Positions 2,790 to 48,574 are shown, counted from the first letter of the stretch. The stretch: 64,000 nucleotides of DNA from Prochloraceae cyanobacterium PL24a_bin.78 (GCA_028281945.1 JANQIW010000139.1:1593-65592), one strand, 5' to 3'. The notes: generated by a model from the letters alone, not told the origin. Translations and numbers: made by a program.

Positions 2790-2852
2790 AATAAAGAAGA
2801 AGGTTGGAAAATAGAAAAAAATTAATAGTCTTAAGAAAAATAAACTAAAATT

Positions 2853-11092: not shown

Positions 11093-11355
11093 ATATCGTT
11101 TTTCCCGTAATAGTGATAGACACCTTCGTGGAGAATGGGGAGAATGGGAGTTTCTTGAGACTTCTGGTTATCCAGAGGCGGAAGCCAACGGTTAACTTCT
11201 GCTTACGCAGAGGCGGAAGCCAACGGTTGATTGGGATAATTTAGTACATCTTAATTACTTATTACTTAAATCTTGGATGGAGATAATAAATTTTAGTTAA
11301 TTATCCTAGATTTAGGATTTTTTAACTCTATCATTATTAAAGATAAATTGATCTT
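11093..11355 (+). mobile_element. MITE-like element copy carrying a nested duplicated 34 nt GC-rich module
   Basis: The ends are tatcgtttttcccgtaatagtgatag ... ctctatcattattaaagataaattgatctta. The internal core is ggagaatggggagaatgggag. Two 34 nt units lie at 11159..11192 and 11194..11227. Confidence 0.55.
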
Positions 11356-11550
11356 ATCAGTTATAACAGTGTTTAGCTTACTGTTGAGCTGTAAAGCTTA
11401 TGAAAGAAAATTATGCTATAATAAAAATATAGTTCTATAGTAAAAAGGTTACTAATATCTAAAGTTTAGAAAAAATTCAGTTTCTGCTAAATTTAAGCTA
11501 AAAAACCATTAAAAATCGCATTAAGATTAATTAATTATTAATGTCAAAAC

Positions 11551-11914: not shown

Positions 11915-13201
11915 ATGGTAATTACAAAAAAAAGTATAATAGTTGGTGCAACAGCCATGGGCTTAACAGCTTTAGCTGTAACTTTACCGGGAATCTTTCG
12001 TAGCGAACCGGGTGGAGCCTTTTTTCGCGATAATCCTAAAGAACTTGTAGATGAAGTATGGCAAATCATCAATAAGCAGTATGTTGATGGTACTTTTAAT
12101 GGCAATGATTGGAGAGCAGTTCGTCAAGAGTATTTAGAGCGATCCTACAACGATAAGCAAGAAGCTTATACTGCAATTAAGGAAATGCTCGAAAAACTTA
12201 ACGATCCCTACACTAGATTTTTAGAGCCAGAACAATTTAAAAATATGCAAATTGATACTTCTGGGGAATTAACAGGAGTAGGTATCCAAATTAGTAAAGA
12301 TGAAGAAACAGATCAAATTATCGTAATTTCTCCTATTGAAGATACTCCAGCTTTTGATGCAGGTATTTTAGCTAAGGATATTATTATTAAAATTGATGGT
12401 CAAAGTACTGAAGGGATGGATATCAATGATGCGGTACAACTAATTCGCGGTAAACCCGGAACAGAAGTTACTTTAACTATTCAAAGAGGTTCTCAAGAAA
12501 TAGATTATCCTATTACAAGAGCAAAAATTCAAATACATCCTGTCAGAGCAAGTCTTCAAGAAACAGGTATTGGTCAAGTAGGATATATTCGTCTAACCCA
12601 GTTTAGTGCCCAAGCTTCTAAAGAAATGCGTGAAGCGATTCTTAACATGGAAGAAGAAGATATCGTGGGTTATGTATTAGATCTAAGATCTAATCCTGGA
12701 GGACTGTTATATTCCAGCATTGAAATTGCCAGAATGTGGCTCGATGAAGGTAGAATTGTTTCCACTGTAAATAGAATTGGAAATAATGAAGTCCATAGAG
12801 CTAATAGAAATGCTCTGAGTGATAAGCCATTAGTAGTATTAGTAGATGGTGGGTCTGCTAGTGCCAGTGAAATTCTTTCCGGTGCTCTACAAGATCATGG
12901 AAGGGCAACTCTAGTGGGAACAAAAACATTTGGTAAAGGTTTAGTTCAATCAGTTCGTGGTTTAGGAGATGGCTCTGGTTTAGCGGTAACCATTGCTAAA
13001 TACCTTACTCCAAACGGAAGAGATATCAATAAAGAAGGAATTCCCCCAGACTATATTTCAGAAATTTCCGAAGAGGAAAAGAAAAAATTACAACAAGATC
13101 GCACCTTAATCGGTACTATTGAAGATCCTCAATTTTCCAAAGGGATTGAAATCCTCAAAGAAGAAATTGCTTCAAAAACAAAAACAAGTAGCTCAAAATA
13201 A
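11915..13201 (+). CDS. S41 family carboxyl-terminal processing protease (Ctp)
   Basis: 428 aa. It has an N-terminal signal anchor, a PDZ region (GVGIQI ... ISPIEDTPAFDAGILAKDIIIKIDG), and catalytic LVDGGSASASEI ... TFGKG motifs. Confidence 0.9.
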   Translation: MVITKKSIIVGATAMGLTALAVTLPGIFRSEPGGAFFRDNPKELVDEVWQIINKQYVDGTFNGNDWRAVRQEYLERSYNDKQEAYTAIKEMLEKLNDPYTRFLEPEQFKNMQIDTSGELTGVGIQISKDEETDQIIVISPIEDTPAFDAGILAKDIIIKIDGQSTEGMDINDAVQLIRGKPGTEVTLTIQRGSQEIDYPITRAKIQIHPVRASLQETGIGQVGYIRLTQFSAQASKEMREAILNMEEEDIVGYVLDLRSNPGGLLYSSIEIARMWLDEGRIVSTVNRIGNNEVHRANRNALSDKPLVVLVDGGSASASEILSGALQDHGRATLVGTKTFGKGLVQSVRGLGDGSGLAVTIAKYLTPNGRDINKEGIPPDYISEISEEEKKKLQQDRTLIGTIEDPQFSKGIEILKEEIASKTKTSSSK

Positions 13202-13221
13202 AAGTTTAAGATGCAAATGTT

Positions 13222-13401
13222 TCACATAGGCTGACATTTGCCAGAACGAATCAATCCCACTCGACGGGCAATAGCATCACTTTGAGAATCAAAAGGACCC
13301 CAGTAATTTTCTGAATCTGGGGTTTGTTTTCCATGAAAACTAACAATTTGACAAGTCTGATCTTGGGTCTTGACAATATACCACTTTTGTGTATTACTCA
13401 T
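13222..13401 (-). CDS. small conserved-looking protein (59 aa), below the ORF-track size cutoff
   Basis: Hand translation: MSNTQKWYIVKTQDQTCQIVSFHGKQTPDSENYWGPFDSQSDAIARRVGLIRSGKCQPM*. The WYIVK...C.IV and ARRVGLIRxGKCQP pattern is one I recall from small cyanobacterial proteins. It is convergent with the protease gene, and tataat sits just upstream of the ATG. Confidence 0.5.
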   Translation of the reverse strand: MSNTQKWYIVKTQDQTCQIVSFHGKQTPDSENYWGPFDSQSDAIARRVGLIRSGKCQPM

Positions 13402-13439
13402 AATTATATTATATTAGAGCTAAAAAAATATATAACTAA

Positions 13440-13580
13440 TATCAAGAGAGTGTTTAAGGTTGATAGAGTTTGAATTTCCTAAATCTAGGATAATTAACCA
13501 AAATTTATTCTCCCATTCTCCCACTCTCCCACTCTCCCATTCTCCCACTCAATGTCTATCATAGTTAAAGAAAAACGATA
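13440..13580 (-). mobile_element. MITE-like element copy (compact, best-preserved ends)
   Basis: tatcaagagagtgtttaaggttgatagag ... ctcccattctcccactctcccactctcccattctccc ... ctatcatagttaaagaaaaacgata. The imperfect terminal inverted repeat is visible (ctttaac-tatgatag vs gtttaaggttgatag). Confidence 0.65.
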
Positions 13581-13586
13581 TAACTA

Positions 13587-13967
13587 ATGACAAACTCGGA
13601 TTCCAAATTAAATAAAGCAGTAAAAAGATTATATCAATTCCAAATATACTGTAAATGGTTATTAGTAATTATTTGTTGGCTAAGTTTAGGAGCTTTTGCT
13701 ATTTGGGAATTACGAGAAGATATTTCTCTATGGTTAGACTATTTTACTTGGGCAGCAGTGCGTTATGGTTTAGCCTATAATCTTAAAGCTACTATCTGCC
13801 TTAGTATATCTATAGGAATGACTATTAGTGTATTAATAAGACAAATAGAAAATCTTTTCTTAGGAATCCCTAATAAAGAAAGATATCGCTTAGAAAAACA
13901 AGTCAAAGAAATTCAGCAAAAAGGCCCAAAGCATATTTTATATCCATGGATTTTTAAGGGTGAATAA
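13587..13967 (+). CDS. hypothetical membrane protein
   Basis: 126 aa with 2-3 hydrophobic helices. The start is 6 nt after the MITE end. The 3' end overlaps the convergent cheB by 14 nt. Confidence 0.45.
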   Translation: MTNSDSKLNKAVKRLYQFQIYCKWLLVIICWLSLGAFAIWELREDISLWLDYFTWAAVRYGLAYNLKATICLSISIGMTISVLIRQIENLFLGIPNKERYRLEKQVKEIQQKGPKHILYPWIFKGE

Positions 13968-15024
13968 TTTTCTTGATAAATTTAGGGGCAATCTGTTCAA
14001 TAGGTAAAATTTCATCAGCAGCACCTAATTTAATTGCTTCATGAGGCATACCAAAAACTATTGAAGTAGCTTCATTTTGAGCAATAGTAAACCCACCAGA
14101 TTCAGATATTTTAAGTAAACCTTCCGCTCCATCTTTTCCCATACCTGTTAGTAAAATACCAATAACACCTTTCCCATAATAACTAGCCAATGATTTAAAT
14201 GTAACAGTAACCGAAGGACGATGCCCTAAAACAGGAGGAGATTTAGAACACATAAAACTGCCTGTAGGACTTATTTGTAAATGATGTCCTTCTAAAGGAA
14301 AATAAATCTTTCCCGGTTTTGGATATAAACCAGATTTAGCTATTTCAATTGGTAATAGACAATTATTACTTAACCAATCAATAAATCCTTGTAAAAATCC
14401 TTGACTGATATGTTGGACACAAATAATCGGTAAAGGAAAATCTTTTGGTAATTGACTAAAAATCTCACTTAAAGCTTGAGGACCACCAGTAGAAGCACCA
14501 ATGCCTACAATTTTAAAAGGGTGAATATGTTTTTTATGTTTTGGATAGTTATTGATTTCTACATTTTGAATAAGCGTTTGAGGTTTTTGGATTGTAGATG
14601 AATGTTTTCTTCTGGTAAAAACCTTGATTCCAGAAAGAACTTTGATTTTATTGATTAAAGGTTGTTGCATAGACTCATAATCTTGAAGTTGCCCACTACG
14701 AGGCTTCGGAAAGATATCAACTGCTCCTGCTTCCAATAGATTAAAAATATTTTCCACATCATCTTCCAAAACTGAAGCACTAATAACTAAAATTGGCCGT
14801 GGATAAGATGCCATTACTTCTTTTGTAAATTCCAAACCATTCATTTTTGGCATATGCAGATCGGTGCAAATCACATCTGGATTTACTTTGGGAATTAAAT
14901 CTAACCCTTCCACTCCCGTAGATGCGGTACCCACTACTTCTATTTCTGGTGATGAATCTAAAATCCTTTTGAGAATAGTTAAAGCGATTGATGAATCTTC
15001 TACTAAAATAACTCTGATTGGCAT
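13954..15024 (-). CDS. cheB: chemotaxis response regulator protein-glutamate methylesterase CheB
   Basis: 356 aa. The N-terminal REC domain (ILVEDSSI ... DVICTDLHMPKMNG) precedes the CheB catalytic domain (GASTGGPQAL, VQHISQGF, LTGMGKDGAEG). Confidence 0.9.
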   Translation of the reverse strand: MPIRVILVEDSSIALTILKRILDSSPEIEVVGTASTGVEGLDLIPKVNPDVICTDLHMPKMNGLEFTKEVMASYPRPILVISASVLEDDVENIFNLLEAGAVDIFPKPRSGQLQDYESMQQPLINKIKVLSGIKVFTRRKHSSTIQKPQTLIQNVEINNYPKHKKHIHPFKIVGIGASTGGPQALSEIFSQLPKDFPLPIICVQHISQGFLQGFIDWLSNNCLLPIEIAKSGLYPKPGKIYFPLEGHHLQISPTGSFMCSKSPPVLGHRPSVTVTFKSLASYYGKGVIGILLTGMGKDGAEGLLKISESGGFTIAQNEATSIVFGMPHEAIKLGAADEILPIEQIAPKFIKKIIHP

Positions 15025-15096
15025 TGTTTTTTATCTTTTTATTTTTATCCAGACATATTGTAATTTAAAATTAGTTTTAACAAAAATATCAAAAAG

Positions 15097-16428
15097 AATT
15101 CCCCATTCATCTACAGGGTGAGGATGAATTTTTGACCAACAAAAAAAAATTGCGAAGCGTCCACACAAGACAAATTTCTTGTGCCATAATAAAATTATCA
15201 AAAATTATTGTTTGCGATAAAATGCTCAAAGTAGTCAAAGTTGGTCTATACCCAACTGAAAATCAAAAAGAGCAGCTAGAAAAAGGATTTGGCTGCTGCC
15301 GTTGGTTGTGGAATAGATTTCTAAATTTGACTAACAAAACTTATAAAGAAACAGGTAAAGGTTTATCACGATACGATCTACAAAAACAACTTCCTGAATT
15401 GAAAAAGGAATTTCCGTGGCTGAAAGAAACTTATAGTCAGTCCTTACAAGTGATTTGTTTGAATTTAAGTAGAGGATTTATTAATTTCTAGGAAAAAAGA
15501 GCGAGATACCCAAGATTCAAATCTAAACATGGAAAACAATCATTAACTTATCCACAAAATGTAAAAATAGTTGGAGATTATCTCAAATTCCCTAAGATAG
15601 GGGAAATTTATGCCAAAATTCATCGTCCTTATAATGGAAAAATAAAAACTGTTACTATAACTAAAAATAAATGTAATCAGTATCATGGCTCTATTTTATT
15701 TGACGATGGGAAAGAACCACCAAAACCATCTAAGAATGGAAAAGCTATTGGACTTGATCTGGGAATTAATGATTTTTGTATCACTTCAAATGGGAGTAAA
15801 TTCAATAATCCTAAATGGTTAAATAGACATAAAAAAAACCTAAAAATCAAACAAAAAGCACTATCTAGAAAGCAAAAAAGCTCTCAAAATAGAAATAAAG
15901 CAAGATTATTGGTAGCAAAAGTTCATAACAAAATAGCACGATGTCGAGAAGATTTTCAGCACAAATTATCACGCAGGATAATAAACGAGAACCAAGTTAT
16001 TGTAGTGGAAAATCTAAATATAAAAGGAATGGTAAAAAATCATTGTCTAGCTCTTACTATCTCACAAGTAGGTTGGGGACAATTCTTGACTATGTTGAAA
16101 TATAAAGCTGAGAATGAGGGGAAGATTTATTTGGAAATTGATAGATTTTTTCCTAGTTCTAAAACTTGTAATCATTGCTTAAATGTAGTAGATAGTTTAC
16201 CATTAGATGTGAGACAATGGACTTGTCATCAATGTCAAACAACCCACGACAGAGATGTAAATGCCGCCAGAAATATTCTCGAAGAAGGACTGGGAATTTT
16301 GGCTTCAGGATCTGGAGTTACAGCCTATTGTCCAGATGTAAGCCCTAGTAGTGGAGGACGAAAGAAATCTACTACCAGGCTATCTGTTGGGTAGGAAGCT
16401 CCATCCTCCTTGAGGTGGGGTAGTTCAC
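15097..16428 (+). mobile_element. IS200/IS605-family (IS1341-like) element, tnpB only, inserted between cheA and cheB
   Basis: It contains tnpB and no tnpA ORF. The left-end and right-end sequences recur elsewhere in the window (11551.., 10977.., 11871..). Boundaries are approximate. Confidence 0.65.
15222..16394 (+). pseudogene. tnpB: tnpB (RNA-guided nuclease family) interrupted by one in-frame TAG
   Basis: ORFs 15132..15491 and 15909..16394 are in the same frame (offset 777). The 139 codons between them have no stop, and TAG at 15489..15491 is the only interruption. RuvC-like motifs are GLDLGIND, VVVENLNIKGM and HDRDVNAARNI. The zinc ribbon is CNHC...CHQC. The probable start is MLKVVKVGLYPT at 15222. 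Confidence 0.75.
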
Positions 16429-19400
16429 ACCAACTTACTTAAAGTTTCCAAAAGGACATCTTGATTAAATTTTCCCTTAATAATATAAGCATTTGCTCCA
16501 GCTTCTGCACCTCTTTTTCGATCTTCATCTGACGAAAGAGTTGTTACTAAAATTATCGGCAATTCATTATATTCTTTACTTTGACGAACTTTAGCTGTTA
16601 GTTGTAAACCATCTAAATTAGGCATTTGAACGTCAGAAACTAATCCATCAAATGGACGAGTTTGTAATTTATTAAAAGCATCTAATCCATCTACTGCTGT
16701 TACCACTTCATATCCTGCTGCTTCTAAGATTCGTTTTTCTTGAGTACGAGTAGTGATAGAATCTTCCGCTAAGAGAAGAACTGGTTTTGTTTTCACCTTT
16801 TGTTCACTAGCTTGAGTAGTAACCACAGAAGATATTATTTGTTTTTGCATTGATTTGAACAAATCTTGAGGATTGAGAATCATACAAACTTCTCCTGATC
16901 CTAAAATAGCTGCTCCTGTCACATTACGAACTCTTTTTAAAATTTTACTTTGAGGTTTGAGAACAACATCTAAGGTATCTAACACTCGATCGACTAATAA
17001 TCCAAAGCTTTCTTGTCCAATATTCATAACAATACAAGCTTGACGATGGCTATCTTCTAAAATATTTTCTTCTAGATCTTGATTTTGAACACTATTATTT
17101 TTAATTGGATATTTAACGGAATTCGATAACTCTAATAAATCTGCTAAATTGACTAAAGAAATAGGTTTATTATTAAAAGAAAAAGTTTTTCTACCTTCAA
17201 TAGTAAAAATATCTTGTTCTTGAATAAATAAAAATGTCTGAATAAACTCAACAGGAAGAGCAAAAATTATTCCCTGTACCGATAACAAACCAACAGTTGC
17301 AGTTGCTAAAGTAATTCCTATAGTAATTATAAATTTACATCCTTTTCCTTTAACAGATTCTACATCAATATTTCCTTTTAATTGCTCAATATTGGCACGA
17401 ACTACATCTAATCCAATCCCTCTTCCAGATACTTCTGTAATAAAACTTTGGGTAGAAAAACCAGGACGAAAAATTAAAGATTGAATCTGATTGACACTCA
17501 TGGTATCTAATTCTTGTTGATTATGTAATCCTCTTTTAATGGCTGTTTCTTTAATTTTCTGAAGATTTAAACCTTTACCATCATCTTGTATTTCAATGAT
17601 AATATTATTACCATTTTGATAGCCTCGCAACCAAATTTGAGCTAGAGGAGGTTTTCCTGATACTCTTCTTTCTTCTTTAGTTTCAATGCCATGATCGATG
17701 GAATTACGAATCATATGCATTAAAGGATCTTTTAATTCTTCAATCAATTGCTTATCTGCTACAGTATCACCGCCTGAGAATTTTAATTCTATCTGTTTGT
17801 CTTTTTCTTTAGCTAAATCTCTCACCATTCTCGGGAAAAAGTTAAAAAGGGTAGACAATGGCAACATCCGCAATCCACGAATTTTTTCTTCTAATTCTTC
17901 TGCGATTAAATCCAATCTAGTGGTAGTTTCTACCGCAGAGATTTTGAGGTTATCAATTGCTTTTTCTAGCTTTTCTGAAAGGGGATTATTAATGAGGTTT
18001 TCTGTGGAGTTGATAATACTCATTTGATAGTAATGAGATTTACATTGTTGCCAAAGGAATGCTATTCGATCGATTTCTGAGGCTAAATTAGCAATACGAA
18101 TTTTATTAACAGTTAACTCTCCTGTTTGGATAATCAAGTTATCTAAATTCTTGGTTTGAACTCTAATTGTATCGATTTTATAAGGCTCATTAAGAGGAGT
18201 TGGTGGAGATAAAGCAACTTGTTGGTTGAAAGATTTATTATTAGTTTTTCCTGTATTTTTATTTGGTTTGATTATTTTTTCTGGTTTACTTTTGCCTATT
18301 TTTAGTTGGTGGAGAATTTCTTGAAGATTTAAATTATGTGGAATACCTGTAATAGCTTCTTTCGCTAATGTTTTAATTGCATCTAAGGCATTATAGAGAC
18401 GATCGCTTATTTGAGGTGTTAAGGTTATGTCGTTATCTTTTACTTGTATTAATACATCTTCCATACCATGAGCAATTGTTTCAATGATATCTATGCCAAT
18501 TGTTCTAGCATCTCCTTTAATACTATGAACTTCTCTGAGTAATTTCTCTAGAAAAGCTATATTTTGAGAATCTTTTTCTAAATTTAGTAAGTCTGTTTCT
18601 AGTTCTTCCAGATGTTCTGTAGAAGATATTTTATAGTTTTGTCTTAATTCTTCATCTTCTATAAAGATTGATTCAGTTTTAATTTGTTCTAATACTAATT
18701 TATCATCTTCTAGTAATAGTTTCAAATCTTGATTGATATTGTTTTCTAATTCTCTTTCTGGTTTTTCTCCCGTGATTTCTTGGTCTAATAGTTGTAAAAT
18801 TGTCGATAAATCCCTGTTGTGTGGGAAACCTGTTACTGCTTCTTGTATTAATTCTTTCATAGCATCTAAGGAATTATAGAGAAGCTCACTTATTTGATAA
18901 GTAAAATTTCTTTGACCATTTTTTACTTTTATTAAAATATCCTCCATAGCATGAGAAATCTTTTCAACACTATTTATGCCAATTATCCTAGAATCTCCTT
19001 TAATACTATGTAATTCTCGTAATAATTTATCTAAAGAAGGAATATCGTTAGGATCTTTTTCAATATTTAGTAGATTTGTTTCTATTTTTTCTAGATGTTC
19101 TTGAGAAGATATTTTATAAATTTCTCTTAATTCTTCATCTTCTATATAGATTGATTGAGATTCAATTTCTTCTAAATTTAGATTAGCTTCTGTTTCTGAT
19201 AAGTTGATTTCTTGATTTTCTTGGTTATGTAATAAATCTTTATCAGTTTCATTTGATAAATCTTCTGATATCTGTTGAGTTATTGCTTGAGTTAATCCAT
19301 CTACAATGGTAAGAGTATCAATATTATGAGGGATTCCCTTCACTGCTTGTTCTAATAATTTGCGAATTGGATTTAGGGTTACTTGGATTTGCTCTCTTAA

Positions 19401-20153
19401 TTGTGAAGTTAATTTTAGCTCATTTTTCAAGATTTTTTTGAATATTTTTTCTATTGTATGAGTAATAATTTCAATGCTTTCTACTTCGACAATTCTAGAG
19501 TCTCCTTTAAGAGAGTGAGCTTTAATAGATAATTCTTCGATACATTCTAAATCTTCTGGATTACTTGCTAATTTAATTAAACCTGCTTCCAATTTATCTA
19601 GATTTTCTGTAGAACTTGTTTCATAAATAACTCGTAGTTCTTCATCTTGAATTAAGAAACTTTGAGATTTATTTTGATTATTTTGATTATTTAATTCAGT
19701 TGTTTCTTGGCTTTTTTCAGCTTTTTCTGGTATTACTTTTTCTATTATTTCAGGTTTTGCTTTAGCATTTTCCTCTACAAGAATTTCCTCTAGTTTATTT
19801 ACTATTTTTTGCCAATCTACTTTACTAGGAGATTCACTAACTGCTTCATTTACTAATTGACTTATTACTGTAATTGTTTCGTAAAAAATTTCATAAAGTT
19901 CTGAGTTATAAATAATTTCTTTCTTTTGTATTTTAGTAATGATTTGTTGAAAATTATTAGCTATTTTTCCAATAATATCTAATTCAACAATTTGAGAATC
20001 GGCTCTTAGAGTTTTTAATTCCTGTATTAACTCGTTTAAATAAATTTCATTATTTGGATTTTTTCTTAAAGCTAATAAATTAGTTTGTAACTTTTCTAAA
20101 CGTTCTTGGCTAGAAAATTTATACAATTGTCTTAATTCTGGATCTTTTATCAT
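16425..20153 (-). CDS. cheA: hybrid CheA-type histidine kinase with four N-terminal Hpt modules and a C-terminal receiver
   Basis: 1242 aa. Four ~170 aa repeats begin (I/L)xDxELRxxY. The repeats carry AHSLKGDSR, LHSIKGDSR and VHSIKGDAR, while the first has KTLRADSQ. These are followed by a dimerisation region, HATPase (HMIRNSIDHGIE, DDGKGL, GRGIGLDVV), a CheW-like P5 domain and REC (LLAEDSITTR ... DVQMPNLDG). Confidence 0.9.
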   Translation of the reverse strand: MIKDPELRQLYKFSSQERLEKLQTNLLALRKNPNNEIYLNELIQELKTLRADSQIVELDIIGKIANNFQQIITKIQKKEIIYNSELYEIFYETITVISQLVNEAVSESPSKVDWQKIVNKLEEILVEENAKAKPEIIEKVIPEKAEKSQETTELNNQNNQNKSQSFLIQDEELRVIYETSSTENLDKLEAGLIKLASNPEDLECIEELSIKAHSLKGDSRIVEVESIEIITHTIEKIFKKILKNELKLTSQLREQIQVTLNPIRKLLEQAVKGIPHNIDTLTIVDGLTQAITQQISEDLSNETDKDLLHNQENQEINLSETEANLNLEEIESQSIYIEDEELREIYKISSQEHLEKIETNLLNIEKDPNDIPSLDKLLRELHSIKGDSRIIGINSVEKISHAMEDILIKVKNGQRNFTYQISELLYNSLDAMKELIQEAVTGFPHNRDLSTILQLLDQEITGEKPERELENNINQDLKLLLEDDKLVLEQIKTESIFIEDEELRQNYKISSTEHLEELETDLLNLEKDSQNIAFLEKLLREVHSIKGDARTIGIDIIETIAHGMEDVLIQVKDNDITLTPQISDRLYNALDAIKTLAKEAITGIPHNLNLQEILHQLKIGKSKPEKIIKPNKNTGKTNNKSFNQQVALSPPTPLNEPYKIDTIRVQTKNLDNLIIQTGELTVNKIRIANLASEIDRIAFLWQQCKSHYYQMSIINSTENLINNPLSEKLEKAIDNLKISAVETTTRLDLIAEELEEKIRGLRMLPLSTLFNFFPRMVRDLAKEKDKQIELKFSGGDTVADKQLIEELKDPLMHMIRNSIDHGIETKEERRVSGKPPLAQIWLRGYQNGNNIIIEIQDDGKGLNLQKIKETAIKRGLHNQQELDTMSVNQIQSLIFRPGFSTQSFITEVSGRGIGLDVVRANIEQLKGNIDVESVKGKGCKFIITIGITLATATVGLLSVQGIIFALPVEFIQTFLFIQEQDIFTIEGRKTFSFNNKPISLVNLADLLELSNSVKYPIKNNSVQNQDLEENILEDSHRQACIVMNIGQESFGLLVDRVLDTLDVVLKPQSKILKRVRNVTGAAILGSGEVCMILNPQDLFKSMQKQIISSVVTTQASEQKVKTKPVLLLAEDSITTRTQEKRILEAAGYEVVTAVDGLDAFNKLQTRPFDGLVSDVQMPNLDGLQLTAKVRQSKEYNELPIILVTTLSSDEDRKRGAEAGANAYIIKGKFNQDVLLETLSKLV

Positions 20154-20372
20154 AGTTATTTATAGTATTGTTTTGTAAATAGTTAATTTGTTTTATTTTT
20201 ATATAGAATATTATTGAAGTTAAAATGATTATTTTAGGATTTCCATAACTTAATATTTAATTTTTATGCTATTAAACTATGGAAATTATTGATGTTATTG
20301 CTAGGAGTTAATCTAAATTAAATAATTCTAATCTTAATAGCATCAAAAAAAGATTTCATTGATTAGATTTTT

Positions 20373-20411
20373 TTTGAAACTTAATTTTGAAACTTGATTT
20401 TGAAACTTGAT
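20373..20411. repeat. 3 x 13 nt direct repeat (TTTGAAACTTRAT) upstream of cheA
   Basis: Read directly at 20373..20385, 20386..20398 and 20399..20411. It lies in the 520 bp MCP-cheA spacer. Confidence 0.8.
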
Positions 20412-20507
20412 TGTTTAATTAATTATTCCTCAATTTACTCCTTTTTTTCAGAGTGTTTTTACTTAAGTTTTGATTATAGCTTAATGCTATTTTCTAGTTT
20501 TTTTGAT

Positions 20508-20537
20508 GTTGATTAATGTTGATTAATATTGATTAAA
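20508..20537. repeat. 3 x 10 nt direct repeat (GTTGATTAAT)
   Basis: Read directly as gttgattaat gttgattaat attgattaaa, in the same spacer. Confidence 0.8.
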
Positions 20538-20674
20538 ATATCATGAACGATATTAACTTTATCTGGTAAATTTTGAGCTGAACTTGCAAAGTATTAATGA
20601 TTTTTTTGTGATACTTTCCAATGGCAAATCTGTTTTTTACGAATCAGTGTTTCATTAATAAATTAATCAATATT

Positions 20675-22132
20675 TTATACTAAACTCTGAAGATTCTTAG
20701 TTGCACTATCTAATTTCTTAGTTCCTTCTTTAGTTTGATTGATCCCTACAGAAGTTTCTTGTGCTCCTTGATTAATGGCATTCATAGCATTTAAAACTTG
20801 CTCAAAAGCCGTAGCTTGCTGTTTGATATTAAGAGATATTTGTTGGTTATTAATTACCACATCATTAACTGCATCAGTAACACCTGTAAAAGCCGTCAAA
20901 GTATTTTCAGTCACTCGCAAACTAGTCTTTACTTTTGTCGTTCCTTCGTCAGTAACCATTACAGTTGAACCAATAGAAGTTTGAATTTGAGATACTAAAT
21001 CACTAATTTTATTGGCTGATTGTTTGCTTCGATCGGCTAATTTGCGAATTTCACTAGCAACAACACTAAAACCTTTTCCATGCTCCCCAGCTCTGACGGC
21101 TTCAACTGCTGCATTAAGAGCCAACATATTGGTTCGATTAGAAAGATCCCCTACCAATTGAGATATATTACCAATTTCACTAGTTTGATCCCTGAGATCA
21201 GAAATTTTATTAGCTATTTCTTCTACTTTCTCTTTTAAATCCGACATTTGATCAAATGCTTTTTCTGCGGCTAAATTACCAGCTTGGGCCATGACTAGAG
21301 CCTCTTGTGCCGAACTTGCGGCTGCTTCTGCTTGTTTGATAGATTGTCTGGCAGAAACGTTTAACTCATCCATTGTGGTTGTGGTTTCGTTAACTGAAGT
21401 AGCTTGCTGAGTGGCAGTATATTCTTGTTGTTGTAAAGTTGCGGCAATTTCGCTAGAAGAGGATTGAATAATATGACTCGTTTCATTAATAGTTTTTCCT
21501 ACTCCTGAACTAATCCAATAGGCTAAGGCAATACTTAACAAGGAAATAATAATAACAATAATTACTAATGTAAATACCATAAAGGAAACAAATCTTTCAG
21601 ACTCTTGATTTTTTTCTTGTAATATTTCCAACTCTGATAAGTCAAATTCTAGATGTACTTGGTTTAAATTTCTAATTAATTCTAGGTTGCTTTGGTCTGT
21701 GAATAAATTAATAGCCTCTGCTCTTTTGCCTTCTTGAATTAAACTGAGAATAGAATCAGCATTGTTTTGATATTCTTCTGTTAATTGAATAATTCTATTC
21801 AACCTTTCTCTTTCTTGAGAGCCTTGGATTAGATTCTCTTGATTAAGTTCTTCAATACCTTGGTTAAATAATTGTTTTGCTTCTTGGTATTGTTGTAAAA
21901 ACTCTTGGTTAGGATTAATCATATAACTCTTAGAAGAACTAATTATATCTCTAATTCCTCTGTCTATATTTTTTGATTTCTCTAGGATATCTTCTACTTT
22001 ATGTACTTCTTCAAATCCTTCAAATACTCTAGAACTTGTCCACCAGCCGAAAATAATGGTTCCAATTAATCCAAAAATTGGAATTGCGTAACCTAGTAAA
22101 ATTCTTTTTTGTAGTTTTAAATTGTTGAACAT
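20675..22132 (-). CDS. methyl-accepting chemotaxis protein with a CHASE3-like periplasmic sensor
   Basis: 485 aa. The order is TM, a helical sensor ([27 protein letters not shown]3-like), TM, then the MCP signalling domain ([35 protein letters not shown]). No obvious HAMP domain was seen. Confidence 0.88.
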
Positions 22133-23017
22133 TGATGTTTTCTCTTGGGCTAAATTTTTCTATAGATAATACTCTTTTTGCTTTAGTAGTAAGATGGTTA
22201 GTTGTTTCAATAACGTAGGAAAAAATACTGATTTATTTGTAATTTTCTGGTTAATGTTAGTGTACATTAATTATCAGAGAAAATTGTAACCTGTATTGAC
22301 TCTTTTTATATAGAGAATTAAAGAGAATCAAGAAGTTTTGATTTTGAGATTTTAAGTAATATTTTAATCTATTAATATTAGCCTATATTCCTGACTATGT
22401 CTATCTTATATATTTATTGAAAACTATTAGTTTTTTCAATTTGATGATCAAAGGTTAACTAACTGGTTTACATTATTTTTAATCCAAAATTAAATCATTC
22501 TTAATGGAAAAAATTTAACTTAATCAAGATTAATTAACTCAGGATAAGAATCTAAAAAATAAATTGTATTTTTTCCTATTTCGAGTTAAAATTTAAAATA
22601 AACCTAGATCAAATTATAAAATATTTATAATTAAGTTTAGATTGATTTATTACTCAGATAGAATTAAGTAAGGAGAAAATTAAGTATCCTGTAGATATAA
22701 GTTAGTTCAAAGTTAGGATTGAGCTAAAAATAGATAGGATTATGGTATGTATAGATATATATTGTTAAATTTCAATAATGATTTTTTTTTAATTTAAAAA
22801 ATTAAGATACTAAAAGGCTAATCAAATCAATAATTCAATGATATGAAATTCAAAAAATACTATTTTACTACAAGTATTACCAAAACAAAGAAATTATTAA
22901 TAATGAGAAAAAGTTAATGACTAACATCACATAAACTTTAAAAACTAAATTATCGACAAATAAACTTTCGATAGAGTATAATACATACCTAATTAACCGT
23001 ATAATGGATTATAATTT

Positions 23018-24175
23018 ATGATTACAGAAAAATTAATAACATTAAACAAAATAAGAGAACAACTAGAAAATCTTCATCAAGAATCCGCCACAGGACAATT
23101 AATTTTTAAAACAACAAAATTAATCGGAAGAATCCATCTTTATTCGGGAAGACTGCTTTATGTTACCAATGAAATTCATCGAGTAAGACAATGGTATAGA
23201 GCTACTGAGAAATATTCATCAAAATTAAATATGGATAGAGAGGAATTAAATCAAGATGGACTTTGGGAATATTCCATCCTTTATGGAGCCATCAGCAAAA
23301 AACAACTAAGTTTAACTCAAATCAAAGAAATTATTAGAGAAGTTGCTCAACAATGTCTTTTTGAAGCTAGTGGCTATAAAAATTTAAAAATTGAATGGAA
23401 TCCCCAATCGAAAAAAAATTCAGCCCTTTCTTTAGTATTAACCTTATCTTTTCATGAAATCAACTTAGCTATTACAAAAGTAGCACAAATGCGAAAAGAA
23501 TGGATGAAGGCAGGTTTAGGAATGCTTCAACCAATGCTGGCTCCGGTTTTAAAACCTGATTCAAACCCTGAAAAGCTTCCTGTTTCTCAAGAATATCTTG
23601 ATGGCAAGAATACTCTTTGGGATGTTGCCTTAAAAGAAAAAAAATCTTTAGTAGAAGTCACCCGTTCTTTATTACCTTTTTATGGCAAAGGTTTACTAAA
23701 ATTTCGAGAAGTTGCTGATTTAGATATACCCACTAGCAAAAAATTATCAAGCCAAACTCCAACTACAACTCCAGTAGCTAAAGCAACTGTACCTAAAGGA
23801 AAGAAACCTTTAATTGCTTGTATTGATGATAGTCCTGTAGTGGCACATAATTTAAAGAAAACTTTAGAACCTATGGGATATAATATTTTAAGTATTAAAG
23901 AACCTATGCAGGGTTTTTCCCAATTAATTGAAAATAAACCTGATTTAATTTTATTAGATATTAATATGCCTAACGCTAATGGTTATAGTGTTTGTCAATT
24001 TTTACGCAGTTCTCCAGTTTTTGAAAAAACTCCTATTATTATTCTTACAGGTCAAGATACAGTAATCGATCGTGCTCGTGCCAAATTAGTTGGAGCTACT
24101 GACTTTATTGGTAAACCAGCCCCCAAAAGTGAATTACTTCAAACCATTGAGCAATATTTGACCAAAGAAGAATAG
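23018..24175 (+). CDS. PatA-type response regulator (N-terminal PATAN domain + C-terminal REC)
   Basis: 385 aa. The N-terminal domain is PATAN-like (GRIHLYSGRLLYVTNEIHRVRQWYRA). The C-terminal REC is LIACIDDSPVV ... LLDINMPNANGYSVCQFLR ... ILTGQD ... GKP. Confidence 0.85.
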   Translation: MITEKLITLNKIREQLENLHQESATGQLIFKTTKLIGRIHLYSGRLLYVTNEIHRVRQWYRATEKYSSKLNMDREELNQDGLWEYSILYGAISKKQLSLTQIKEIIREVAQQCLFEASGYKNLKIEWNPQSKKNSALSLVLTLSFHEINLAITKVAQMRKEWMKAGLGMLQPMLAPVLKPDSNPEKLPVSQEYLDGKNTLWDVALKEKKSLVEVTRSLLPFYGKGLLKFREVADLDIPTSKKLSSQTPTTTPVAKATVPKGKKPLIACIDDSPVVAHNLKKTLEPMGYNILSIKEPMQGFSQLIENKPDLILLDINMPNANGYSVCQFLRSSPVFEKTPIIILTGQDTVIDRARAKLVGATDFIGKPAPKSELLQTIEQYLTKEE

Positions 24176-24185
24176 GTATTTAAAT

Positions 24186-25235
24186 TTATATAGTTTCATT
24201 TACTACTAATTTATCTCCGAGAAAAATAGACTTTAAGTCTAGAATACTCATAGTTTTTCCTTGAAATTTAGTAGTGCCTTCTAAATATTGCTCGTCATCG
24301 ATATAATTAACACTAGGTGGTGATAAGATTTCTTGAGGATTAACAAAGATTATATCAAAGACTTCTTTAATATAAATACCAACTAAAATATCTTGAATTT
24401 CAACTATCATCACTTGAGAATCGGAACTTATATCATCCATCGGCAAATTTAATATACTACGAAGATCGATTAAAGTAATAATTTCACCTCTTAGATTCAT
24501 ATTCCCAATAATATGAGAAGGAGTACATGGAATAGGAGTTGAAAGCTCAAAATCTGTAAATTCCCGTATTAAGGTTAAATCTATACCATAATATTCATCA
24601 TTTAAAATGATTACTGCCAGAGATTTAAATCCAGTGAAATCTTTTTTTGCTGTTAAAGAACTTAAAGTTTTAGCCCTTTGTCGGAAAATATGCTTCTCTT
24701 TATCGGTGGCGTGAGAAAAAAGAAATAATTTTTGTTCTAATAAAGCTTGAGAATCCTCGGTTTTTGTCGCTTTTCCATCTTGATTATCAGAAATTTTTCT
24801 TTCTACATATCCCAATAATTTTTCTGAATTCAGAATAAAAATAATATCCTCATTTTTTTTAGCAATACCATCAATAAATTTTTCCCTTCCATCACTTAAT
24901 TCTCTTCTTAAATAAACTTCAAAAGTGATTTTATCTACTTTGAGATTAGATACTTCTTGAACGCCATTAATAATCAAACCCATTCGGATGTCTTTAGATT
25001 TAATAACAACAATGGTATCTGTTAGTTTATATTTCTGAGGTTGATAACCAAAACGAATATTTAAATCCATTACAGGGATAATATATCCTCTAACATCAAC
25101 TAAACCAATAATATCATCAGGAGTATCAGGGATTGTTTTTAACTCTGGTAAGAAAAAAACTTCTTCAACTCCATAACTATCAATACCATACAAAGAATCA
25201 TTTAACTTAAAAATTAGATAAGGATGCTCATTCAT
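24186..25235 (-). CDS. cheW: tandem double-CheW-domain coupling protein
   Basis: 349 aa with two CheW-like domains (YLIFKLNDSLYGIDSYGVEEV ... VRGYIIPVMDL, and LAVIILNDEYYGIDLTLIREF ... LRGEIITLIDL). Confidence 0.85.
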   Translation of the reverse strand: MNEHPYLIFKLNDSLYGIDSYGVEEVFFLPELKTIPDTPDDIIGLVDVRGYIIPVMDLNIRFGYQPQKYKLTDTIVVIKSKDIRMGLIINGVQEVSNLKVDKITFEVYLRRELSDGREKFIDGIAKKNEDIIFILNSEKLLGYVERKISDNQDGKATKTEDSQALLEQKLFLFSHATDKEKHIFRQRAKTLSSLTAKKDFTGFKSLAVIILNDEYYGIDLTLIREFTDFELSTPIPCTPSHIIGNMNLRGEIITLIDLRSILNLPMDDISSDSQVMIVEIQDILVGIYIKEVFDIIFVNPQEILSPPSVNYIDDEQYLEGTTKFQGKTMSILDLKSIFLGDKLVVNETI

Positions 25236-25320
25236 TGTTTTTCATTTCTCTTTTAATAATTATTAATTTATAGTTGACACTAATTGAGTCAAAATTATCG
25301 TTACTTGATTTATAAAATAA

Positions 25321-25472
25321 TGATAGAGTTAAAGCTATCCAAAATCTACTGATTCCAAACCTAAAACCTATCTTCCTTATACCCTTTGTCTTCCTTATCC
25401 TCCTTGTCTCACTTTAACCTTGACGTAGCCTCTGGGTAAGCAGAAGTATATCATACTTTTGTAAAAATGATC
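25321..25472 (-). repeat. partial MITE-related sequence with one copy of the GC-rich hairpin module
   Basis: tgatagagttaaag ... pyrimidine microsatellite cttccttataccctttgtcttccttatcctcc ... cctctgggtaagcagaagt (the reverse complement of the 11194.. module) ... aaaaatgatc. Confidence 0.35.
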
Positions 25473-25583
25473 TTAGTACAGTTTTCTTGTTGTTCTGAAT
25501 ATTTTTTAGCATTTGTTAAAAACTAGAAAAAATAGTAAAAATACTTAATCTGAGATCAAATTTTTTTTAAGAAAACTTTATAA

Positions 25584-27149
25584 TTATTCTTGATTTAAAG
25601 TTTTTTCTAATTCTGAAATAAGTTCAACCGCAGTAATATTTCCTCTTTCTGGAATCAGAGTATGAGGAGGAAATTTTTTAAGAGTTTTTAAAGCTGCCTT
25701 TTGCATTTTTAAACTTCTGGGAAAATCTTGTTCTTGTTGATAAATATTGCTTAATTCAAAATAAGGAAATAAAATATTAGGTTTTAAATAAATTATTTTC
25801 TTTAAAAAAGTTTTAGCATTTTCTAAATTTCCTTCCTCCTCTGAAATTTGACTCAATAAATAATAAACTTGAACATTTAATGGATCTATTTCTAAAGCTT
25901 GATGAGAATATTCAATTGCTTGTTGATATTTTCCAGTATTGGCATAGATTTGAGCCATGAGATAATAACCTTCAAAATTTTTAGGCCATTGATCCAACAG
26001 TATTTGTAGTTGCTCAATTGCTAAATTATATGATTTTTGTTTTATATATTGTTGAGCATTTTCTATTAATTCTTCTTCGATTAATTGTGGCTTAATTTCT
26101 TTAAGAAAATCTTTTTTTTGTGTTGAAGATGTAATTAAATATTTATGATTTTGATGATAATTATTTGAAGTTTCAAAAGCTTTGATGGATGGTCTAAATT
26201 TTTTATTATTAGAATAGGAATTATACGATAAAGATTTTGTTTTAAAATTAGGAAAATTTTGTGAGTTAGATTTCTGTTGAGTTTTTGTTGATTTTTTTGC
26301 TTTTTCTTGAGGCTGATAAATTATAGATTGAGGAAAAATCTGAGATTGAAAATTATCTAAATTTAACCCTGAAATTTCAGCATGACCAGTTAGTAAATAG
26401 CCTGATTTTTTAAGAATTTTATAAAATTTATTGATAACTTTTTGAACTGCTGATTGATCAAAATAGATAAAAACATTACGACAAAGGATGAGATCAAAAT
26501 TTTTCATTTCTAAATTAATATTAGGAAAATCTGAGTTCACCAAATTCAAATTTTCAAACTGAACCATCTCTCTAATGTCTTCAAGCAGATGATATCCTTC
26601 TCTTGTTTCTTGAAAATAATTCTGTTGAATTTCCGGATCAACATTTCTAAAAGACCAAGAACTATAAACACCTTTTTTAGCTTTTTTAAGTGCTTCTTGA
26701 TTAATATCTACTCCCAAAATTGTTAGATTCCAATTTTCTAAATCGGGGATAACTTTTTTAGCTAAAATAGCTAAAGAATATGGTTCTTCACCTGTGGAAC
26801 ATCCCGCGCTACAAATACGAATTGTTTTCTGAGTTTGGTTATTACTAATTAATTGGGGAAAAATAACTTTTTCTAACAAAGAAAATTGTCCTTTATCTCT
26901 AAAGAAATAACTTTCAAGATTAGTAAGTAGAGAAACCAATATTTTCCATTCTTTTTGACTATCTAGATGATTTAGAGTTAAAAATTGATAATATTGTTCT
27001 AATGAATTGAATTTAAGTTCTTTATTTCTTAAGGATAGTTTTTGTTGTAAAATATCTCCATCGACTTTTCTAATTTTTAAACCAGTATATTGAGCAATTA
27101 AATTAATGAATTTTTGTTGTAATTCCAAGCTTAAATTTTGTTCTAACAC
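25584..27149 (-). CDS. cheR: CheR-type protein-glutamate O-methyltransferase fused to C-terminal TPR repeats
   Basis: 521 aa. ESYFFRD, IRICSAGCSTGEEPYSLAI and LILCRNVFIYFD are CheR SAM-methyltransferase motifs. The C-terminal ~170 aa are TPR-like (AIEQLQILLDQWPKNFEGYYLMAQIYANTGKYQQAIEY...). Confidence 0.88.
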   Translation of the reverse strand: MLEQNLSLELQQKFINLIAQYTGLKIRKVDGDILQQKLSLRNKELKFNSLEQYYQFLTLNHLDSQKEWKILVSLLTNLESYFFRDKGQFSLLEKVIFPQLISNNQTQKTIRICSAGCSTGEEPYSLAILAKKVIPDLENWNLTILGVDINQEALKKAKKGVYSSWSFRNVDPEIQQNYFQETREGYHLLEDIREMVQFENLNLVNSDFPNINLEMKNFDLILCRNVFIYFDQSAVQKVINKFYKILKKSGYLLTGHAEISGLNLDNFQSQIFPQSIIYQPQEKAKKSTKTQQKSNSQNFPNFKTKSLSYNSYSNNKKFRPSIKAFETSNNYHQNHKYLITSSTQKKDFLKEIKPQLIEEELIENAQQYIKQKSYNLAIEQLQILLDQWPKNFEGYYLMAQIYANTGKYQQAIEYSHQALEIDPLNVQVYYLLSQISEEEGNLENAKTFLKKIIYLKPNILFPYFELSNIYQQEQDFPRSLKMQKAALKTLKKFPPHTLIPERGNITAVELISELEKTLNQE

Positions 27150-27670
27150 TTTAATCTCCTATTTATATTTTACTGTCAATATTTGGTCGTGGAAATATTG
27201 GGGTTGCTGATTGTATTGTGGCAATGGTATTAATAGATAGAGTAGCTTTGTAATCAGTAATTACTCTAGGGCCTCAGTTAAAGAAAATAGACATTGTTAA
27301 TTGAACTAAAGTAATAAACTAGTTGGCTCAAGCTAATATACAGTATACCCAGAATCTATTTACAACAAACATAATCGAAAAACTCTAAAATTAAAGCTTT
27401 TATGAATTCTTAATTCTCAATTTTCAATGCTTAAGATTATAAATTTCTTGAGAAAAAAAACTAAATATTAGCTTTAATAATATATATAATATTGCATAAA
27501 TCATGAAAGAAAAGTTATATAATTAGGGTATAATTTAATAGATTGGGGGATAAAAAATAAAAATTATAAGGATTATAGCATTTTCAAAAGCTAATTTCAT
27601 AACAAACAAGAATAACATCATTAAAGTCAAAGCTAAACCAGAAAAAACGAATTAAAACAATAAGAATAAT

Positions 27671-28489
27671 ATGAAAATAATCGAACCAATTTCATCACAA
27701 ACACTTTTGAATCGTAGGAAACAATTAAAAAATCAAAGAAGATTCAAAGCAGGATTAACATTATTAAGAACTTTAATATTAATAGGCATGGTTTATGGAT
27801 CTTATACACTGATAATTTTACCAAAATGGTTACTCAAAGATAGTTCTCAAATTGAGATTAGAGGTAATCGATTCCTAGATGAAGAAGAATTTCGCAGTTT
27901 AATTCCCATATCCTATCCTCAATCAATCGTAAAATTAAAACCTGAAAATTTAAAAGAAAAATTGAAATCTAATACACCTGTAATAGACGCTAGAATTTCT
28001 CGTCATTTATTGCCAGCTAAATTAATTATAGAAATTGAAGAAAGGCCACCAGTTGCTGTTATCACCCTAGGGAATACAAAAGTTTCTCAAAATTCACCAC
28101 AAAATAGAGGCTATATAGATGAGAAAGGAAATATCATCCCCTTTGATTTCTATAAAAATCCTCAAGAAAAAGAATTCAAATTGCCAGAATTGTATGCTAA
28201 TGGTTATTTAGAGCAATATAAATCAGATTGGCAACAACTATATCAAGAAATCACAAAATCTTCCCTAAAAATTTTTGCCGTAGATTGGCGAAATCCTAGT
28301 GATTTAATTCTGAAAACAGAATTAGGAAAAGTTAACTTTGGGCCATTAACTTCTCAGTTTTCTTATCAATTAACTGTTTTAGAAAAAATGAGAGATCTAC
28401 CCAATAAATTACAAATAGATAAGATTGAATATATTGATTTAACAATTCCAACATCACCTAAAGTAAAACTTAAAGAAGAAATTAAATAG
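27671..28489 (+). CDS. ftsQ: cell division protein FtsQ/DivIB
   Basis: 272 aa. It has an N-terminal TM and a POTRA-like segment (IEIRGNRFLDEEEFRSLI), and lies immediately upstream of ftsZ. Confidence 0.75.
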   Translation: MKIIEPISSQTLLNRRKQLKNQRRFKAGLTLLRTLILIGMVYGSYTLIILPKWLLKDSSQIEIRGNRFLDEEEFRSLIPISYPQSIVKLKPENLKEKLKSNTPVIDARISRHLLPAKLIIEIEERPPVAVITLGNTKVSQNSPQNRGYIDEKGNIIPFDFYKNPQEKEFKLPELYANGYLEQYKSDWQQLYQEITKSSLKIFAVDWRNPSDLILKTELGKVNFGPLTSQFSYQLTVLEKMRDLPNKLQIDKIEYIDLTIPTSPKVKLKEEIK

Positions 28490-28741
28490 TCAAAAATTTA
28501 TAATTTAGCCAGAAGTTTGCAATAATCAACATAAACAGTATAATTAATGGTAATTAGCTAAACTTTATCATAGCTATAGTTGATTTTATTGATTGGTTAT
28601 GGGTCTAAGTAAACTCAAAATTTAAAAACTAAGCAATAAATTCAGTAAATGTTACTAATCTGGTAGTCTAGAAAGAATTAAGTTAATTTCTAACTAATAA
28701 AACCTTTAAATTTTTTGAGCACTCCATCATTACAAATAGTT

Positions 28742-48397: not shown

Positions 48398-48574
48398 ATA
48401 CCGTTTTTCGCGTAATTGTGATAGAAATAGAGAATGGAGACAATGGGAAGATGGGAGACAATGGGAAGATCAGAAATAGGAGTTGATATGAAAGAGTAGG
48501 GAAAATAAATTTGGATTAATTATCCTAGATTGATAAGTTTTAACTCTATCATCATTAAAGACTCTCTTACAGAT
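48398..48574 (+). mobile_element. MITE-like element copy
   Basis: ataccgtttttcgcgtaattgtgatag ... agaatggagacaatgggaagatgggagacaatgggaag ... ttatcctagat ... ctctatcatcattaaagactctcttacagat. Confidence 0.6.

Follow-up and report, generated by a model that had tools for sequence, protein, structure and literature searches.

We find that a 64,000-nucleotide stretch of the genome of Prochloraceae cyanobacterium PL24a_bin.78 (GCA_028281945.1, JANQIW010000139.1:1593-65592; hereafter the window, with positions counted from its first letter) carries between 13954 and 27149 a chemosensory (che) cluster of six intact genes, confirmed by open reading frame (ORF) listing and Pfam scans, with the catalytic and phospho-acceptor residues present. 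Our preferred reading, to which we assign a probability of roughly 0.6, is that these genes encode a complete, adaptation-competent pathway of the alternative cellular functions (ACF) class, with a PatA-type regulator as its output and the type IV pilus motor as the proposed target. The six proteins had been placed and their domains named in an initial annotation of the window, and Pfam finds all of them at the same positions with the same domains:

13954-15024, minus strand: CheB methylesterase/deamidase, 356 aa (Pfam REC and CheB_methylest)
15222-16394, plus strand: tnpB (OrfB of the IS200/IS605 family), between cheA and cheB (Pfam)
16425-20153, minus strand: hybrid CheA, 1242 aa (Pfam Hpt, HATPase_c, CheW and REC)
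approximately 19779-20153, 19284-19664, 18774-19154 and 18279-18671, minus strand: Hpt-like modules 1 to 4 of CheA
approximately 16839-18191, minus strand: CheA kinase core (dimerisation, HATPase and CheW domains)
approximately 16428-16781, minus strand: C-terminal receiver of CheA
20675-22132, minus strand: transmembrane methyl-accepting chemotaxis protein (MCP), 485 aa (Pfam MCPsignal, 4HB_MCP_1 and CHASE3)
23018-24175, plus strand: PatA-type response regulator (PATAN and REC), 385 aa (Pfam DUF4388/PATAN and REC)
24186-25235, minus strand: double-CheW scaffold protein, 349 aa (Pfam CheW, two stretches)
25584-27149, minus strand: CheR fused to C-terminal TPR repeats, 521 aa (Pfam CheR and TPR families)

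The class and descent of the pathway are recorded in the core of its kinase. In a neighbour-joining tree of the CheA core (dimerisation, HATPase and CheW domains; 100 bootstraps), three cyanobacterial branches, here A, B and C, unite with clusters of Proteobacteria and Nitrospirota that encode a REC-histidine kinase in a single clade (97/100) that excludes WspE-named, ChpA-like, cyanobacterial Tax-type and classical CheAs; the window CheA sits in branch B. Identity to the window core is 53% in branch B, 52% in branch A, 49% in branch C and 46% in the proteobacterial sequences, and about 28% outside the clade, a value that covers the WspE-named, ChpA-like and cyanobacterial Tax-type CheAs alike. 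A MiST-based CheA census (2023) labels the orthologues of Halothece, Geminocystis herdmanii, Acaryochloris and Moorea as 'cheaACF'; its entries for the first three (PCC7418_RS05040, 931 aa; SYN6308_RS03875, 939 aa; and AM1_RS22990, 777 aa, respectively) match our orthologues in length, and the window CheA nests among them. Moreover, the fusion of CheR to TPR repeats is a marker of ACF pathways (PMC3447774), which the window CheR carries by Pfam, and the PATAN-REC protein at 23018-24175 is the kind of multidomain response regulator encoded in ACF clusters. The tree, the labels of the orthologues and the CheR-TPR marker together indicate that the system is of the ACF class and not Pil-Chp-like by descent. 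We therefore regard the assignment, which is drawn from sequence comparison, as very probable, tempered by its basis in the labels of orthologues and a neighbour-joining tree rather than in class-level hidden Markov models run on the window proteins. NCBIfam gave generic matches for CheA, CheB, CheR, CheW and the MCP; it contains no class-level models and does not settle between ACF and the type IV pilus (Tfp) class.

The initial annotation had instead framed the cluster as Pil-Chp-like, which would make it a ChpA-type, Tfp-class pilus chemosensory system acquired or retained in a cyanobacterium. The composition is superficially equal, with two CheW domains, CheB and CheR beside a multi-Hpt CheA that ends in a receiver, and multi-Hpt CheAs mostly belong to the Tfp or ACF class. 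However, this Pil-Chp trait also occurs in ACF systems, and the composition is shared with Wsp. ChpA-like cores share only about 28% identity with the CheA core, which falls in a different clade, the orthologues are labelled ACF, the PilG/PilH pair is absent, the CheR-TPR fusion is typical of ACF, and most orthologues have a single Hpt. As a statement of ancestry, we consider the Pil-Chp reading refuted and its residual probability to be very small indeed. Nor are the core components assembled from unrelated classes, the outcome that the initial annotation had named as telling against a coherent system.

The conservation of the gene set was traced through a CheA search, neighbourhood look-ups and a scan of species-representative genomes, with 80 loci sorted into groups by ORF-by-ORF BLAST against the window proteins. 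The CheA search returned orthologues across the cyanobacteria, and the same cluster recurs in dozens of genomes and is widespread in this phylum, which is clustering far beyond chance. The same gene set with a PatA-type regulator on the opposite strand is found in Halothece PCC 7418, Fischerella NIES-4106 and Rippkaea orientalis PCC 8801. In branch B, to which the window belongs, a full-length PatA of 42-48% identity is linked in about 12 of the 15 informative loci; its carriers include Halothece, Rippkaea PCC 8801, three Fischerella/Nostochopsis genomes, FACHB-471, Plectonema, Waterburya, Egbenema and several metagenome-assembled genomes (MAGs). Seven further cases have PatA and CheA matches that report an equal longest contig (52743, 48949, 302926, 14217, 84271, 16732 and 5349), which suggests that the two genes share one contig there as well. 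When the ORFs of 15 branch-B loci were clustered all against all, no seventh gene proved to be conserved, and what emerged were antisense shadow ORFs only.

The other branches vary chiefly in the response regulator. Branch A (Microcoleus, Arthrospira, Nostoc and others) usually has only a receiver of about 128 aa on the opposite strand after cheB, whereas branch C (Acaryochloris, Scytonema, Pseudanabaena and others) has as its first gene a divergent PATAN-like-REC protein, with a sub-threshold PF14332 match over the full length. The receivers of about 128 aa in the other branches are of the same sequence type as the PatA-family receiver. The proteobacterial, Nitrospirota and Magnetococcus loci have the order cheR-cheWW-mcp-cheA-cheB, followed by a REC-HisKA-HATPase protein. 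Hence, the core of this subfamily is a HAMP-less CHASE3/4HB receptor, a double CheW, CheA-REC, CheB and CheR, the last usually with TPR, and the PATAN-REC regulator is the conserved sixth gene in the branch of the window. Two departures from this pattern stood out in the survey. In G. herdmanii, the orthologous ACF-class CheA stands alone, without an MCP, CheW, CheB or CheR nearby, and adjoins a gene for a PilB-like ATPase (MshEN and T2SSE); since a separate orphan PatA lies about 42 kb off, the cluster has dispersed in that lineage. In one cyanobacterial MAG, three tandem PatA-type genes lie directly upstream of the orthologous CheA.

Thus, the cluster type is already known from class and CheR-TPR censuses and from cultured strains, an eventuality that the initial annotation had allowed for, and it is catalogued there but uncharacterised: in the literature consulted we found no experimental study of orthologous clusters and no discussion of the ACF-PatA linkage. 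The window adds one more member, from a divergent, low-GC cyanobacterium, in which the Hpt array has expanded and a tnpB has been inserted.

The adaptation module appears to be in working order. CheB (CheB_methylest E-value 1.4e-59, with Response_reg; 342.7 bits against a cut-off of 342 for an NCBIfam CheB subfamily) aligns end to end with the solved CheB 6ymz, with the Ser of GASTGG, the His of QH and the Asp of GMGKDGA conserved, as is the receiver Asp in CTDLHMP. CheR (Pfam E-value 1.2e-54, with several TPR families at residues ~365-460) keeps FFR, STGEEPYS, DI(D/N) and CRNV(M/F)IYFD in comparison with Salmonella CheR 1af7. The possibility raised earlier that these enzymes might be degenerate is thereby removed. 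The double-CheW protein (Pfam CheW E-value 3.2e-52, two stretches) has a counterpart of 331-475 aa in most complete related loci, both cyanobacterial and proteobacterial. The MCP has an extracytoplasmic 4HB/CHASE3 sensor, and its two transmembrane segments lie at about residues 10-30 and 181-210 (by a transmembrane scan). Pfam matched no HAMP domain in it, and only some 20 residues separate the second segment from the first methylation-type heptads, so that a HAMP cannot fit. NCBIfam aligns residues 214-485 of the MCP to 282-553 of a CtpM-type Pseudomonas receptor model, both spans being 272 residues long, and we take the signalling domain to be of the ~40-heptad class, as we presume CtpM to be.

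Methylation-site pairs, for which the initial annotation had proposed a search, are indeed present in this receptor. Two strict consensus matches, TLQQQEYT (232) and TATQQATS (239), lie seven residues apart, and heptad-spaced Q/E pairs are conserved on both helices among 57 orthologous receptors. In these 57, QQ is near-invariant at 242/243, 430/431 and 438/439, and E and Q alternate at positions 235 (E27/Q26), 249 (E29/Q28), 444 (Q30/E20) and also 459, which is the pattern expected for sites deamidated by CheB and methylated by CheR. With both the enzyme motifs and the receptor pairs in place, the cluster appears competent for methylation-based adaptation on the evidence of its sequences, in agreement with the initial suggestion of an adaptation-competent pathway distinct from the pix locus downstream.

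The kinase itself was described at first as having four Hpt modules. Four homologous Hpt-like modules are indeed present, but a phospho-accepting His is found only in modules 2-4 (H213, H382 and H543, within HS(L/I)KGD), with a Lys at that position of the Hpt alignment in module 1; Pfam likewise scores three Hpt stretches. The modules are visible as DNA repeats of 300 nt with 77% and 62% identity, the higher value being that between modules 3 and 4. This 77% identity, together with the single HxxKG motif found in 60 of the 85 related CheAs, indicates that the multi-Hpt state is a recent, lineage-specific expansion. The acidic pair, Asp, Thr and Lys of the C-terminal receiver are kept, as read from the sequence.

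The putative output, PatA, is identified by a PF14332 (DUF4388/PATAN) match of 25.1 bits against a cut-off of 25 and a REC match of 85 bits in Pfam. Its receiver reads CIDDS, LLDINMP, ILTG and IGKP, that is, the acidic pair, Asp, Thr and Lys, and these residues align with their equivalents in the pix PatAs. In full-length alignments, the protein is 33-35% identical to the two pix PatAs of the window and 45% identical, over 374 aa with one 1-residue gap, to a PatA_N-annotated PixG-type PatA from a pix-type operon of Synechococcus NIES-970. The cluster-linked PatAs and the NIES-970 pix-type group form a clade in 80 of 100 neighbour-joining bootstraps. As we read it, an ACF core whose kin elsewhere signal to a REC-histidine kinase gained a Tax/Pix-type PATAN regulator in cyanobacteria, making the system a mosaic at the output step only. 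The statement in the initial annotation that no stand-alone CheY is present holds: ORF listing and Pfam find no stand-alone REC ORF within 13500-27800.

We infer for this pathway a cognate role for PatA, a pilus target, an extracytoplasmic signal and a function for the extra Hpt modules, which would combine as follows. A signal outside the cytoplasm would be sensed by the CHASE3/4HB domain and pass directly, without a HAMP, into the ~40-heptad signalling bundle, which would control CheA within arrays built with the double-CheW protein. CheA would autophosphorylate on at least one of its three His-bearing Hpt modules, and the phosphate would go to CheB, to the PatA-type regulator and to the receiver of CheA itself, which would serve as a sink or modulator. 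CheR-TPR would methylate, and CheB would deamidate and demethylate, the conserved Q/E pairs to give temporal adaptation. Phosphorylated PatA would then use its PATAN domain to act on a cellular machine. By analogy with Synechocystis, this would most likely be the type IV pilus motor, and the effect would be a bias in pilus activity or polarity. There, the PatA-type PATAN regulators interact with the pilus motor (PilB1/PilC), PixG must be phosphorylated to bind PilB1 and mark the leading pole, and the receiver domain of CheA serves to tune the kinase. The PatA output hints that this ACF system may touch pilus function; taken alone, the step from PatA to the pilus as the output of the cluster, which rests on this analogy, is a possibility that we put somewhat below even odds.

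Several observations weigh against this output, beyond the basis of the class assignment given above. The patA gene lies on the strand opposite to the rest of the che genes, convergent with cheW and divergent from mcp, which excludes co-transcription here, and the window holds no pil genes. ACF systems characteristically control non-motility outputs. Equally similar PatA homologues are orphans in G. herdmanii and Gloeothece verrucosa, and a close one sits inside an ordinary pix locus in Synechococcus NIES-970; the cluster-linked PatAs are not resolved as monophyletic (24 of 100 neighbour-joining bootstraps), for which reason we refrain from proposing a separate 'fifth PatA clade'. Finally, deletion of the whole cheR-containing NpR0244-NpR0250 locus of Nostoc punctiforme, whose kinship to the subfamily is unverified, reportedly produced no hormogonium or phototaxis phenotype, although a cheR insertion mutant there was impaired in motility and symbiosis.

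A rival explanation is that the ACF core and PatA are merely neighbours, with PatA wired as an orphan to another input, and that CheA signals to its own receiver or to an unlinked regulator in a process other than motility, for example aggregation, exopolysaccharide production or development. The strand of patA and the orphan homologues at similar identity fit this, as does the knowledge that orphan PatAs arise by duplication from chemosensory PatAs. The sister branch has only the small receiver, with the CheR-TPR survey recording 'NO RR in cluster' for N. punctiforme, and the output in proteobacterial relatives is a REC-histidine kinase; the reported N. punctiforme deletion also agrees, although the kinship of that locus to the subfamily is unverified. 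Against it, the linkage persists in Chroococcales-like, Pleurocapsales-like, Nostocales and filamentous non-heterocystous genomes even though the order of the genes has been rearranged, and we estimate the chance of a PatA falling within 10 kb at a few percent per locus, given a handful of PatAs per genome. PatA is, moreover, the only conserved extra gene, and PatA-family receivers occur in the other branches too. We accordingly consider mere neighbourhood unlikely.

A different possibility accepts PatA as the output and directs it to the cell-division or patterning machinery, as for Anabaena PatA, or to another PATAN partner. Anabaena PatA is reported to be located at division sites and interacts with divisome components; in the window, the cluster adjoins ftsQ-ftsZ (27671-30025), and in Halothece a gene for an FtsI-like penicillin-binding protein adjoins it. 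However, Fischerella and Rippkaea have unrelated neighbours, the closest PatA relatives among those inside chemosensory operons are of the pix type, and pili are the target of the chemosensory PatA regulators investigated to date. Such a target thus strikes us as improbable, more so than mere neighbourhood, and as the neighbourhood is not conserved, we set the ftsQ/ftsZ adjacency aside as a functional hint and regard it as probably a coincidence.

With the pilus motor as the proposed target of an adapting ACF pathway, the cluster bears on a wider question. Research on cyanobacterial motility signalling centres on Tax, Pix and Hmp, which are without CheB and CheR, and this puts adapting chemotaxis in these organisms in question; here, a widespread family joins a full adaptation module to a regulator of a type for which docking on the pilus motor has been shown. 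The CheR-TPR survey tabulated the regulator of the Cyanothece PCC 8801 cluster as 'UNKNOWN - REC' (Munoz-Martinez et al., 2012), and the ACF-PatA linkage gives a concrete identity to what had been listed only under that label. Should the reading be true, an extracytoplasmic chemical or surface cue would steer pili, placing temporally adapting chemotaxis or surface sensing beside non-adapting phototaxis. The most ambitious version, a fifth PatA-linked chemosensory pathway in which a methylation-adapting ACF core, whose ancestral partner in other phyla is a REC-histidine kinase, captured a Tax/Pix-type PATAN regulator and steers type IV pili, we advance only tentatively, as doubtful on present evidence. 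The main value of the finding lies in a testable hypothesis, that of an adapting ACF core feeding a pilus-type PATAN regulator, in the culturable strains PCC 8801, PCC 7418 and Fischerella.

The transcriptional layout of the cluster bears on how these parts might be coupled. The initial annotation divided it into three transcription units (cheR-cheW, patA and mcp-cheA-cheB); gene orientation fits this division and is its sole basis, but the gaps (348 bp between cheR and cheW, 521 bp between mcp and cheA, and 1.4 kb between cheA and cheB) allow more units. A promoter and terminator scan did no better than on shuffled sequence (68 found against 76 expected) and so lends no support to any operon model. 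The gaps at 20154-20674, 22133-23017, 25236-25583 and 27150-27670 hold no decayed genes by tblastn of the ORFs of related loci, and the same comparison shows no remnant of a second MCP in the long intergenic gaps.

What had been noted as an insertion sequence between cheA and cheB is a transposon-family gene, but it consists of a single tnpB, on the opposite strand, with one in-frame stop. The gene forms one continuous frame at 15222-16394, interrupted in the single-frame translation only by a TAG at 15489-15491; its two ORF pieces match HTH_OrfB_IS605, OrfB_IS605 and Cas12f1-like_TNB in Pfam, and the RuvC-like D/E/D contexts (GLDLGIND, VVVENLN and HDRDVNAARN) and the zinc ribbon are kept. An Rfam scan of 13000-28000 matched no family at all, TnpB guide RNAs included; as the tnpB stop is 30 nt from the cheA stop codon, any guide sequence would fall in the 3' end of cheA. 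The gap between cheA and cheB is 1400 bp here as against 19-164 bp in the orthologous loci, and the insertion probably uncouples the transcription of cheB from that of cheA while leaving every gene intact.

Housekeeping genes flank the cluster: an S41 protease gene at one end, ftsQ, ftsZ, thiD and hisS at the other, and a nusG-rplKAJ cluster farther up from the che genes. This identifies the region as chromosomal. The best matches of FtsZ, CheA and PatA are all cyanobacterial; those of FtsZ come from diverse Cyanobacteriales at 74-79% identity, the ACF CheA is at most 47% identical to any protein in a collection of 5.8 billion, and the GC content of the window is about 30%. From the low GC and these identities we conclude that the host belongs to a poorly sampled cyanobacterial lineage.

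Some smaller features lie on the cheB side. A predicted membrane protein of 126 aa without a family match (13587-13967, plus strand) is encoded convergently with cheB, whose 3' end it overlaps by 14 nt; an independent Logan contig carries it as well. A dispersed intergenic repeat of ~50-80 nt, with the core ...AAATTTTGGTTAATTATCCTAGATTTGGAATTTTT..., recurs at 73-88% identity in direct orientation at 2412-2495, 11273-11356 and 48492-48541 and inverted at 13450-13514, with one copy just upstream of the cheB-side flank of the cluster; it resembles a miniature mobile or regulatory repeat. The inverted copy directly adjoins about five tandem copies of the 8-nt unit TCTCCCAY (13509-13550). Farther off, at 1294-3455, a gap of 815 bp with a copy of the dispersed repeat lies between the genes of an AAA_21 ATPase (at 247 aa, short for its family) and an RloB-like protein; the two may be a disrupted defence pair of the OLD/Abi type.

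Comparison with named systems places the cluster more closely. The nearest counterparts, the ACF clusters of Rippkaea (Cyanothece) PCC 8801 and Halothece PCC 7418, share the same six gene families with protein identities of 42-59%; relative to them, the gene order of the window is rearranged and tnpB lies between cheA and cheB. Most orthologues have a single Hpt module and some two or more, as against the four Hpt-like modules of the window CheA. Beyond the cyanobacteria, the proteobacterial and Nitrospirota ACF clusters, the nearest outgroup in the tree, have the same order of cheR(-TPR), double cheW, an mcp of ~483 aa, cheA-REC and cheB, with 46% identity in the CheA core and 48-57% in CheB. 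Their output is a REC-coiled-coil-HisKA-HATPase protein after cheB, in contrast to the PATAN-REC protein of the window, and this architecture resembles, by description only, that of Rhodospirillum centenum Che3 with CheS3 (PMC4436063). The N. punctiforme cluster NpR0244-NpR0250 has CheB and a CheR fused to TPR (B2J4R2), like the window, but unlike the window no PatA-type regulator is recorded for it ('NO RR in cluster'). Two of the three related Nostoc loci have only a receiver of ~127 aa on the opposite strand, and the third has none. To judge from the reported gene content and these Nostoc loci rather than from its own sequence, NpR0244-NpR0250 probably belongs in the sister branch of the subfamily; a cheR insertion mutant of N. 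punctiforme is reported to be impaired in motility and in the symbiotic infection of Blasia.

The cyanobacterial Tax, Pix, Hmp and Ptx systems (Types 1-4, Tfp class) share with the window a PATAN-REC regulator and a CheA that is hybrid and in many cases multi-Hpt. Unlike the window, they have no CheB or CheR; for the Synechocystis Tax systems, the literature confirms this absence, which the initial annotation had stated. They further differ in having a CheY partner and patA as the first gene on the same strand, in the order patA-cheY-cheW-mcp-cheA. Their receptors carry photosensory or other modules, and the Tax-type CheA cores, ~28% identical to that of the window, lie outside its clade. A pix-type locus noted downstream is real and extends from 45792 to beyond 64000. 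It begins with a stand-alone PATAN protein (263 aa, with no REC or REC remnant downstream) and two PatA paralogues, followed by CheY, CheW and two tandem GAF-MCP paralogues (~70% nucleotide identity); its CheA, cut off by the end of the window, contains four or more repeat modules of 831 nt, and every one of them bears an HS(I/L)KG Hpt motif.

Farther afield, Pseudomonas Pil-Chp and Wsp and Myxococcus Frz are generic parallels, each combining a hybrid CheA-REC with CheB, CheR and two CheW functions. Frz and Pil-Chp steer pilus-based motility. The fusion of CheR to TPR recurs in Wsp and in FrzF (PMC3447774), as in the window, and multiple Hpt domains recur in ChpA, as in the window CheA. By descent, the WspE-named CheAs are monophyletic in 100 of 100 bootstraps and separate from the clade of the window, as are the ChpA-like ones. 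The outputs differ: the diguanylate cyclase WspR in Wsp, the CheYs PilG and PilH in Pil-Chp, FrzZ and FrzX in Frz, and, in the window, a PATAN-REC regulator of the PatA type.

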